Origin: Enterobacteria phage vB_EcoM_IME338
Direction: 5' to 3' (one strand)
Sequence record: MH051914
DNA: 64,000 nucleotides
Below the pieces are notes generated by a model. That model searched no databases. It had not been told where the DNA came from and saw only the letters and a list, made by a program, of their open reading frames with translations. Below, one piece after another: positions 28,754-32,324 of the stretch. Every line of letters begins with the position of its first letter. Positions within the stretch are counted from its first letter, which is position 1. Position numbers and translations under genes: made by a program.

Positions 28754-29926
28754 ATGGCAGTAGGTGAAATTCAAATTAGTGCCTTGCCTCAAGCAGCCTT
28801 ACCAATTGACCTTAGTGATATCTTCCATCTTAAGCAGGGTATTGAGGATAAGAGGTGCACTCTTGAGCAATTACTTGCCCCACACGCAAGTCTAAAAAAT
28901 AACCCTCATGGTGTTACTAAAACACAAATTGGTTTAGATAATGTTATTAATGCTCTTCAGTTAGTCGCTGCAAATAACTTATCAGATATTGTTAATGTAG
29001 CTGAGGCAAGAGCAAATCTACAGATTATGTCTTCAGAAGAGGTTAATAACCTTGTCCAGCAACATATCAAGGACAAGAGTAACCCACACAATACAACTAA
29101 GGCACAGGTTGGTTTAAGTAACGTTCAGAACTGGACAACATCCAACCTTTATAATGAAGATGCAGATAAGTACGCTACAGCAAGAGCAGTAAATAACTTG
29201 TACAAGGCTGTTCAGGCTTCTTATCCAGTAGGTACTATCCATCTTTCTATGAACTCTGCAAACCCTTCTACATATTTAATTTGTGGAGGCACTTGGGAGT
29301 TAGTTTCAAAAGGTAGGGCATTGGTTGGTTATGCCTCTGATGCAAGACCAGCAGGTTCTGTATTTGGTGCTTCAACTGTCACTTTGTCAGTTAATAACAT
29401 GCCTCAACACTCACACTCTGTGTCTCTTAGTGGTGGTGGTCACACTCATAATGCAACTGTGTCAATTTCAGCTTTTGACTATGGGACTAAGACTACCAAC
29501 TCTTTTGACTATGGAACAAAAGATACCAATACAACTGGTAACCATACACACAACGTATCAGGTAACACAAGTACAGATGGCACTCACAACCATGATGTGT
29601 ACCCTAGAGAAAATGATGGTACTGGTAATGCTGTAGCTGACTCTGATGGTGGTGGTGCATGGAGAACATCAAGAACTTCTAGTGACGGTGCACACTCACA
29701 CAGTTTTAACGTCACATCTGGTGCATCAGGTGACCACAGCCACACGGTTGGTATTGGTGCTCACAGTCATACTGTTGGTATTGGCTCACATACACACAAT
29801 GGTACTGTGGCAGTTTCTTCTTCTGAGCATACGCATAGTGGGGACACTAATAGTATTGGTGGTGGACAAGCTTTCAACATTGAGCAGCCATCCTTCGTAC
29901 TGTATGTATGGCAGAGAACAGCTTAA
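28754..29926 (+). CDS. tail fibre protein with C-terminal His-x-His repeat region
   Basis: 390 aa; repeats [72 protein letters not shown]. Confidence 0.7.
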   Translation: [390 protein letters not shown]

Positions 29927-29936
29927 TTTCTTTACA

Positions 29937-29956
29937 GGGGCTTTATAGCCCCTTTT
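29937..29956 (+). terminator. rho-independent terminator
   Basis: ggggc-tttata-gcccc hairpin followed by TTTT. Confidence 0.6.
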
Positions 29957-29972
29957 AAGAGGAAAATTTATA

Positions 29973-32324
29973 ATGGCAGATTACAAATTGAGTCAATTAA
30001 ACTCAATCGATACAATCCGTTCAGATGACCTTCTTCATGTCAGAGTTAAAAAGAGACCTGAAATGCTGGGTGATGAAGACCGTCGAATGACCTATCAAGA
30101 CTTCTTAGCATCTTTTAAACTAGAAAGATTTGTCCAGATTGCTGGTAGTACTATGACGGGTGACTTAGGTATTGTTAAGCTACTCTATGGTGGTAAGGCA
30201 GTATTTGACCCAACAGGCTCTTCTGAGATTACTATTGGGGATGTTTTAAAGACTTTTAAAATCAACGCAAACGACCTTAGACTAACTATTGCAGATGCTT
30301 CAAGGTCAGCAACTGTTTATCATACTCTGAATAAACCAAGTCCTAATGAACTTGGGATGAGAACTAATGAAGAGAATGATGCAAGATACTCAAGATTAGC
30401 TGCAAATAACATCTTTACATTCCAGCAGGTTATTCAAGCAAATGGTGAGGCTATTAGGTTAAAAAACTCTTCTGAGAACTCACCGTTGTATATCAGAGGT
30501 CAGGATAGCGCTGGGAATAATAGGTGGTATGTAGGTAATGATTCGGGGAATGATGATGTTCTTATCTACAACAACAAGACAGGCTCTCAAGTTATCATCA
30601 CTAATGATGTTGCTGTCAATAAAACACTGAGAATCACTGGTCAAGTTCAACCATCCGACTTCTCTAACTTAGATGCTAGATACTTTACTCAGACAGTTGC
30701 TAATCAGAGATTTGCACAGTTAGCTGAAAATAATACTTTCAGTGGTTTAAACAAATTTAATAACTATGTTAGTGTTAGCTCTAATGCTGCTGCTATCGTG
30801 CTAAAAAATAAAGCTGTCAATGAATCTTTGTTCATCCTAGCAAAAGATATTGAAGACAATAATCTGTGGTATATTGGTAAAGGTGATGCAAACGACAATA
30901 TCACATTTTACGATTACAAGGGTGGTACTTCTCTTGTCTTCAACTCGTCTGGTGCTGCATTTAACAAACCTGTAAAAATCACTGGTCAAGTTCAACCTTC
31001 CGATTGGACCAACATTGACTCTAGATACATTCCAGCAGGGACTTTGAGTAATCTTGCTAAGCTAAGTGATGTAAACACTTTTAGGATTGCACAGATTATT
31101 AATCAGAATGGCTCATTGTTACAGCTAAAGAATACTACACAAGACAAAGAGCTATACTTTGCTGGTCATAATGCTGATGGTGTTAGAAGGTGGTACATTG
31201 GGAATGGGGAAACATCCAACCCAAAAAGATTTATTATCCATAACGACAGAACTGCAACTACGATTTACATGGAAGATGATTTCTTGTTGAATAAAACAGT
31301 CAGAGTTAATGGTCAAGTTCAACCTTCTAATTGGTCTAACTTAGATAATAGATATTTTGTTAAGACTAAGCTATTAGACCAATCCTTAATGACTGTAACT
31401 GTAAATAACCTTGAAGACCATCCAGCATTTAATCTTGGATACTCAGGTTTTGTCAGAAATAACGGCGTTACTGATGGCTTGAGAGATTTGGCAATTCATG
31501 TTGCGCACTCTAGTAAGACTGCTGCATATGCAAGGGGTATCTCTTTTTCGTACGGCTCAATGGGTTTAGGAGTATTCACCTATGCCTATGATGACGAGGG
31601 TGAATACGCTGGAGAAGCACAGTTTTATACAACTGATTTTAAACCAACCCCTTCAGATATTGGTGCATACACTAAAGCTGAAACTGACCAGAAGATTGCA
31701 CAGGCAATTAGTGACTCTACAGACCTTAATAAAATCTATCCAGTAGGTATTGTAACGTGGTTTAACAGTAATGTTAACCCTAATACAGCACTTCCTGGGT
31801 TAACTTGGACGTACCTGAACAATGGTGTTGGTAGAACTATCAGAATCGCAGCAGCAAACGGTTCAGATGTTGCTACAACTGGTGGTTCAGACTCTGTAAC
31901 TTTAGATGTTGGTAACTTACCATCACACACTCACAGTTTCTCTGCTACCACTTCATCTTTTGACTATGGTACGAAGGGAACTAACACTACGGGTGGACAC
32001 ACTCACTCTGGTAGTGGTTCTACTAGCACAAATGGTGGGCACACCCACTACATTGAGGCGTGGAACGGTACTGGTGTAGGTGGTAATAGGACTTCATCAT
32101 ATGCTGTATCATACAGGAGTGGTGGTCATGAAACTTATGCATCAGGTGACCACAGCCATACTTTCTCTTTTGGTACTAGCGGTGCTGGTGACCATTCCCA
32201 CTCTGTAGCTATTGGTGCTCACACCCACACAGTTAGTGGTAACACTGGTAGTACAGGTTCTGGTTCGGCATTTAGTGTTACTAACCAGTTCTACAAGTTA
32301 ATGGCTTGGGTAAGAACTGCTTAA
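29973..32324 (+). CDS. long tail fibre protein with internal repeats and C-terminal His-x-His region
   Basis: 783 aa; repeated ITGQVQPS(D/N)(F/W)(S/T)N(L/I)D(A/S/N)RY modules; C-terminal [46 protein letters not shown]. Confidence 0.75.

Follow-up and report, generated by a model that had tools for sequence, protein, structure and literature searches.

Introduction

Two adjacent tail fibre genes occupy positions 28,754 to 32,324 of a 64,000-nucleotide (nt) stretch of Enterobacteria phage vB_EcoM_IME338 (sequence record MH051914; this whole stretch is called the window here). The C-terminal modules of both proteins are abundant in Ser, Gly and Thr, contain 6-8% of His, and carry arrays of His-x-His (HxH) motifs. 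The locus thus raises the question of what these arrays do in the fibres, and of how two neighbouring genes came to share them. A sequence-only reading of this DNA had likened the arrays to the metal-coordinating motifs at the tips of T4 gp37 and gp12, and had attributed the shared module to duplication or domain exchange. The analysis presented here makes it very likely that both fibres end in a receptor-binding tip of the T4 gp37 type, with a metal-holding stack of HxH motifs and a specificity set by the head. The two genes are the following:

28754..29926, plus strand: fibre 1, the short tail fibre (STF), an open reading frame (ORF) of 390 amino acids (aa), matching PHROG 2097 'tail fiber protein' (E 2e-136)
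29973..32324, plus strand: fibre 2, the long tail fibre (LTF), an ORF of 783 aa, matching PHROG 4277 over its full length

Results

HxH motifs flank a central head in both fibres

Nine HxH motifs were found in fibre 1 (aa 219, 230, 264, 278, 314, 328, 337, 346 and 359; nt 29408-29836) and six in fibre 2 (aa 652, 676, 690, 727, 741 and 750; nt 31926-32228). When the C-terminal modules were shuffled 20000 times, fibre 1 gave a mean of 1.4 motifs with a maximum of 7, and fibre 2 a mean of 0.8 with a maximum of 5, so that the motifs are indeed as numerous as the sequence-only reading had proposed; the 25-residue peptide that it cited was located in fibre 1 at aa 326-350. Its placement of the arrays at the C-termini needs a small correction, as they lie within the C-terminal modules but not at the extreme end, the last 30 residues or so being beyond them. 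By homology with gp37, these last residues would return to the collar.

In both fibres the motifs form two series, one on either side of a central head segment, and the alignment with gp37 implies a tip that starts in a collar, rises along one needle strand to a variable head, descends along another and comes back to the collar:

29222..29407, plus strand: fibre 1 collar, first part, of the T4 gp10 C-terminal type (aa 157-218)
29408..29593, plus strand: fibre 1 rising needle strand (aa 219-280), with four HxH (219, 230, 264, 278) and a duplicated FDYGTK motif
29594..29692, plus strand: fibre 1 head or receptor-contact segment (aa 281-313), hypervariable among relatives
29693..29836, plus strand: fibre 1 descending needle strand (aa 314-361), with five HxH (314, 328, 337, 346, 359), some of them in 9-residue GxHxHTVGI repeats
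29837..29926, plus strand: fibre 1 C-terminal return to the collar and stop codon (aa 362-390), with a conserved W.RTA end that aligns with ...NYIVRLA of gp37
31737..31925, plus strand: fibre 2 collar, first part (aa 589-651), aligning with the fibre 1 collar
31926..32048, plus strand: fibre 2 rising needle strand (aa 652-692), with three HxH
32049..32150, plus strand: fibre 2 head, of the T4 type (aa 693-726)
32151..32228, plus strand: fibre 2 descending needle strand (aa 727-752), with three HxH and a Pfam Phage_fiber repeat at aa 746-758
32229..32324, plus strand: fibre 2 C-terminal return to the collar and stop codon (aa 753-783)

Within the descending strand of fibre 1, a DNA repeat with a period of 27 nt was detected at 29729-29806.

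Both tips are homologous to that of T4 gp37

Searches with phmmer against the sequences of the Protein Data Bank (PDB) ranked 2XGF, the tip of T4 gp37, first for both fibres, with E values of 6.7e-28 (fibre 1 module) and 4.6e-47 (fibre 2). Both tips align with domains D10-D11 of gp37 (collar, needle and head) in the same order of parts and with the same HxH spacing, the spacings of 14, 14, 9 and 9 residues following the gp37 pattern. The alignment with the gp37 tip, proposed as a check by the sequence-only reading, placed all six HxH of fibre 2 (H652, 676, 690, 727, 741 and 750) in one-to-one correspondence with gp37 H883/885, H915/917, H929/931, H966/968, H980/982 and H989/991, the seventh motif of gp37, at H998, having no counterpart. 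Fibre 1 has counterparts of all seven gp37 motifs plus two extra ones, one per strand at the collar end; the extra motif of the rising strand is that at aa 219 or that at aa 230, depending on the alignment. The comparison with gp37 therefore reflects true homology, with the motifs in register with HxH that bind iron in the solved structure. The parallel with gp12 fared differently, as no gp12 chain appeared at E ≤ 1 in the PDB sequence searches with either fibre, and the Pfam scan gave no PF07484 match.

The collar points to another T4 protein. Over its first 64 residues, the fibre 1 module matches the C-terminal domain of T4 gp10 in the PDB sequence search, and the Pfam family PF21939 (Gp10_C, gathering cut-off 27 bits) scored 63.2 bits in fibre 1, above the cut-off, and 25.7 bits in fibre 2, slightly below it. 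Foldseek with the AlphaFold2 (AF2) model of fibre 2 also found gp10 (5IV5 and 2FKK; probability 0.98-0.99, E 0.01-0.03). The GxHxH tail fibre repeat PF03335 (Phage_fiber, cut-off 20 bits) was detected in fibre 2 with 27.8 bits at aa 746-758, together with Gp10_C and three gp37_trimer matches. The Pfam scan gave no PF03335 match in fibre 1 at E ≤ 0.01, yet many of its homologues carry this family.

His pairs are conserved and the head varies

Conservation was analyzed in 22 Felixounavirus loci from IMG/VR and in a wider alignment of 65 diverse homologues. Among the 22 loci, the His columns are 86-100% conserved, with the exception of one His of fibre 2 outside the motifs; the short fibre carries 7 or 9 HxH and the long fibre 4 or 6, and the head between the last rising and the first descending HxH is of several unrelated types. 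In the wider alignment, the histidine columns of the motifs average an identity of 0.81 versus 0.44 for the other columns (p 1e-7). Mean identity to the fibre 1 query was 0.21 for the head, compared with 0.45 for the needle and 0.53 for the collar, and HxH counts in the 120 best database homologues ranged from 5 to 11, with modes at 9 (the Felixounavirus short-fibre type) and 7 (the T4/lambda type). Near-invariant His pairs around a hypervariable head are what one would expect if structural ligands enclose a specificity element that can be exchanged.

The long fibres of some relatives (loci L014, L016 and L024; ~4770-7200) have only four HxH, the distal needle and the head being replaced by another insert, so that their tip has been swapped for a sequence that is not gp37-like.

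A model of the tips and the nature of the metal

Given the motifs, their homology and register with gp37, and the conservation pattern, all of them observed directly, a structure can be proposed by homology. The chain would leave a T4 gp10/gp11-type collar, go outward as one β strand of the needle, make a small head in contact with the receptor, go back as a second strand and end in the collar. With an outward and a return strand per chain, the needle of the trimer would be six-stranded. Axial geometry and metal occupancy are likewise predicted from the homologue: each HxH, contributed by all three chains, would give six imidazole ligands to one metal ion on the three-fold axis, leading to a predicted load of nine ions per fibre 1 trimer and six per fibre 2 trimer. 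Such a site would resemble the general HxH site, which is octahedral and formed by six His from three chains, one HxH from each (PMC6116203). Most likely, the sites would act as registration and stiffening points in the folding of the three chains and not as receptor contacts, and the head between the two series would set the specificity and be swapped as a cassette.

Given the homology with gp37, Fe(II) is the most likely metal. Seven iron atoms sit in the needle of gp37, each coordinated by a triad of His related by symmetry, and the gp37 collar has a fold common to gp12, gp10 and gp11 (PMC6957217). Zinc or another ion could be bound instead, as in T4 gp12, whose crystal structure has zinc at the HxH site (PMC6116203), and six-His octahedral sites accept several divalent ions. 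We consider this option unlikely: the homologue is gp37 and not gp12, for which the PDB searches gave no structure at E ≤ 1; iron is the metal in gp37, in R-pyocin fibres and in the P2 and phi92 spikes; and the zinc of gp12 is possibly an artefact of its preparation by refolding in zinc salt (PMC6116203).

Fibre 2 carries a cassette in common with T4 gene 37

The two modules are related to each other with 36% identity over 242 columns by BLASTP (E 4e-24), and with 36-45% across alignments. Domain exchange is seen directly in fibre 2, where the distal needle and the head are shared with T4:

31941..32237, plus strand: mosaic cassette common to T4 gene 37 (gp37 aa 896-994), comprising distal needle and head, delimited by megablast, tblastn and codon-aligned windows

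As detected by megablast, positions 31947-32230 of the window are 88.0% identical to T4 gene 37, and tblastn gave 82.8% amino acid identity between cassette and gp37 over 99 aa. In codon-aligned windows of 20 codons, nucleotide identity to gene 37 was 0.77-0.98 within the cassette and 0.35-0.50 in the flanks, which makes the mosaic border a direct observation. The left border lies a few codons past the first HxH and the right one just past the last HxH. The GxHxH 'His boxes' were reportedly described by Tetart and Krisch as recombination points in gene 37. A cassette of this type was found in 42 phage records, consisting of T4 with its closest relatives and of one E. coli Felixounavirus set that includes VpaE1 and AYO145A.

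The shared module could also come from a recent event within this genome, by duplication or by gene conversion of one fibre gene by the other, since the two are adjacent, lie on the same strand, have homologous terminal modules and hold short GxHxH-coding DNA repeats in common. The identity levels are too low for it: the modules share just 36-45% of their residues, and the longest DNA repeats between the genes are 51 nt with 63-76% identity. Besides, each fibre has its own orthologue, with a well conserved collar, in 22 of 22 relatives, which places the fibre split before the origin of the genus, and in its needle and head, fibre 2 is far nearer to T4 gp37 (85% aa, 88% nt) than to fibre 1. We therefore reject a recent intragenomic event as very improbable. 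Protein identity this low, with only short DNA repeats in common, makes the fibre modules old paralogues, and the earlier proposal of duplication or domain exchange is thus borne out in both senses, as an ancient duplication and as a T4-type cassette of ~290 nt with 88% DNA identity.

How the cassette was acquired can be proposed only tentatively. It may represent a relatively recent exchange between T4 and one E. coli Felixounavirus subclade, bordered by the outermost HxH-coding motifs and working on a gp10-type collar without a nearby chaperone of the gp38/Tfa type; we regard this history as possible, though somewhat short of probable. If true, gp37-type tips can fold without a dedicated chaperone on such a collar, and the phage would share the receptor logic of T4, based on the terminal glucose of a truncated lipopolysaccharide (LPS) core and possibly on OmpC.

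The residues of the head are in line with a T4-like specificity. T4 gp37 residues implicated in LPS and OmpC recognition have been described (PMC5221442), and the receptor-contact residues G938, T939, V941, G943, Y949 and Y953 are kept in fibre 2. The cassette predicts recognition of a truncated LPS core with terminal glucose, and possibly of OmpC. The host range of VpaE1 is restricted to E. coli of the B type, whose LPS core is truncated (PMC4690856), a limitation that fits a T4-like LPS mode.

Evidence that weighs against gp37-type tips

Several results argue against reading the tips as of the gp37 type with T4-like function. At the OmpC-related position of T4, A955, fibre 2 has Ser. AF2 monomer models of both C-terminal modules, built on alignments of 62-65 sequences, reached a pLDDT (predicted local distance difference test) of 71.7 for fibre 1 and 69.1 for fibre 2, which is moderate confidence only, and a fold search with the needle and head parts of these models did not retrieve 2XGF for either fibre. 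The density of the fibres of the related phage Bas63 was too poor to place side chains, so that metals have been seen in no Felixounavirus fibre (PMC12609058). No homologue of T4 gp38 or lambda Tfa was found by tblastn next to the fibres or anywhere in the 64-kb window (best E 0.25 and 1.6, respectively), in a search that covered 64 kb where relatives have genomes of ~84-89 kb, that distant homologues would escape, and in which gp57A was not among the queries; the folding requirements may therefore differ from those of T4.

The fold search missed 2XGF even with fibre 2, whose needle and head share 85% identity with that structure, which makes the search uninformative rather than contradictory. 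The monomer models show rising and descending β strands with coil between them, and the gp37 alignment implies the same hairpin topology. The pLDDT of the fibre 2 needle and head was 41-55 in monomer mode despite 85% identity to a solved structure, a caution for screenings that predict trimeric fibre tips as monomers.

That the arrays might be just His-rich sequence of low complexity or of the surface, without a structural role on the axis and engaged for instance in adventitious metal or surface binding, would agree with the bias of the region to S, G, T and H and with the weak AF2 models of the HxH part, but it is contradicted by homology and hardly credible, as the motifs match, in exact register, a solved structure whose corresponding residues are the axial iron ligands (PMC6957217), and conservation is highest at the His pairs, with variation at the x positions between them and in the loops.

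Overlapping ORFs in fibre 1 are spurious

The sequence-only reading had also ascribed the overlapping ORFs at 29325..29948 to the repeats and called them spurious. They are artefacts of composition, although the +1 frame holds two of them and not one, separated by a stop at 29634:

29325..29636 and 29646..29948, plus strand: two overlapping +1-frame ORFs, spurious, of ~100 codons each, with ATG or TTG start

A stop in the +1 frame requires an NTA or NTG codon, and the frame stays open because a region with few hydrophobic residues contains few codons of this kind (6% in the HxH part of fibre 1 versus 10.5% in its N-terminal part). Their length and start codons are what could speak for real alternative-frame proteins, a coding role that we reject as extremely improbable: neither ORF has a Pfam or PHROG match, the translations are nonsense rich in Leu, Val, Thr and Gln, and in the 22 relatives the same 600 nt contain 2-9 stops at varying positions, with a stop at -119 in most of them.

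Discussion

Comparison with known systems

The distal needle and head of fibre 2 share 83-85% protein and 88% DNA identity with T4 gp37. Beyond this likeness, these fibres differ from gp37 in several respects: their collar is of the gp10 C-terminal type (PF21939) and not of the PF07484 type, they have nine and six HxH instead of seven, and they are short, single-gene fibres attached directly to the baseplate. The C-terminal domains of T4 gp10 and gp11 (2FKK and 1EL6), for their part, have no HxH needle inserted.

The closest described cases are those of other Felix O1-like phages. In Bas63, STF gp26 and LTF gp27 are orthologues with the same gene order and the same gp37-like HxH tip (PMC12609058), but the STF has seven HxH and a different head, and the LTF has six HxH with a head that is not T4-like. 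VpaE1 (gp74/gp75) and AYO145A have the same STF type, with nine HxH and a C-terminal module that is 94-96% identical; their LTF head is of the T4 type, with small differences in the LTF cassette (78-86% aa identity). Needle architecture is also shared with the lambda side tail fibre Stf (orf-314) and related fibres of E. coli prophages, and many prophage homologues of the fibres carry PF03335. Lambda orf-314 matches fibre 1 by tblastn (E 8e-20) and has eight HxH and a duplicated xDYGTK motif; the Stf type, however, combines a PF07484 collar with a dedicated Tfa encoded downstream, and no Tfa homologue was found in this window. The chemistry expected here is that of R-type pyocin fibres, P2 gpV and the phi92 spike, with iron, and of T4 gp12, with zinc, where three HxH make an octahedral axial site (PMC6116203). 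These have one site versus a stack of 6-9 here, and PDB searches detected no sequence homology with them.

Tips of this type were already known. Homology of both fibre C-termini to gp37 was described in the 2010 Felix O1 genome paper (PMC3185647) and in the 2015 VpaE1 paper, which called the gp37 relation distant and did not describe a DNA-level cassette (PMC4690856). The 2025 cryo-electron microscopy paper on Bas63 described collar, needle, head and conserved HxH on both fibres (seven and six), with receptor-binding tips highly variable across the genus (PMC12609058). Possible small additions of the present work may be the nine-motif short fibre, the sharply bounded T4 cassette at the DNA level, and the lack of a detectable gp38/Tfa homologue in the window.

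The main value lies in the correct annotation of two receptor-binding fibres, whose host range would be determined by the heads enclosed by the HxH series. In phage engineering, these conserved borders offer natural swap points, and, as a gp38/Tfa chaperone seems to be lacking, the fibres could serve as scaffolds more easily than T4 gp37. From the T4-type cassette, a specificity for rough, truncated LPS cores is predicted, similar to that of T4 or VpaE1. Assuming six copies of each fibre, the predicted nine plus six metal ions per fibre pair would amount to ~90 per virion, a number that touches ideas on phage-bound iron.

Genomic context of the fibre genes

The source of the window is a Felixounavirus (a Felix O1-like myovirus), and the fibre region (28754-32324) reaches up to 92% DNA identity with genomes of this genus such as NBEco005, EC106 and VpaE1. 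Among the megablast matches of the region, two records are labelled Campylobacter and one Staphylococcus, which may reflect mislabelling or contamination, the others being enterobacterial phages. The orthologues of fibre 1 are Bas63 gp26, VpaE1 gp74 and Felix O1 gp76, and those of fibre 2 are Bas63 gp27, VpaE1 gp75 and Felix O1 gp77. Identity is 75% between fibre 1 and bas63_0026, which is named STF in PMC12609058, and 71% between fibre 2 and bas63_0027. Just upstream lies a third gene of the set:

28449..28751, plus strand: LTF platform protein (100 aa), 97% identical to bas63_0025

The Bas63 protein is named 'LTF platform protein (gp025)' in PDB entry 9NDY and PMC12609058. Gene order matches that of Bas63 (JohannRWettstein), with a baseplate J-like gene, a baseplate protein, the 100-aa LTF platform and two fibre genes. 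Compared with Bas63 over positions 27592-32969 of the window, the fibres form a variable island, as neighbouring proteins are 95-100% identical to those of Bas63 and the fibres 75% and 71%.

On the 3' side, the fibre genes are followed by two small ORFs, a terminator-like hairpin and then convergent thymidylate synthase and dihydrofolate reductase genes. The small ORFs (32404..32601 and 32598..32969) lie directly 3' of the LTF gene, the position of T4 gp38 or lambda Tfa; they are 98-100% identical to Bas63 gp28 and gp29 and belong to PHROG families of unknown function, and that at 32598..32969 gave only weak Pfam matches of coiled-coil type, every one under the cut-off. The rightward structural operon ends with the hairpin (32975-32999), which has a 9 bp stem and then a T run and lies immediately ahead of the convergent thymidylate synthase gene (33007..33906).

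Repeats were also observed outside the tips. The N-terminal part of fibre 1 contains two copies of the motif NPHxxTKxQxGLxNVxN, at aa 50-66 (28901-28951) and aa 110-126 (29081-29131), which probably correspond to the 'helix and turn' repeats of the Bas63 fibre (PMC12609058). The LTF shaft (30618-31366, around aa 216-465 of fibre 2) contains three repeats of ~110 aa, with a 77-nt DNA repeat family at 30618, 30963 and 31290 and the three Pfam gp37_trimer matches, and its aa 279-342 also match the T7 gp17 fibre structure 4A0T (E 4e-5).

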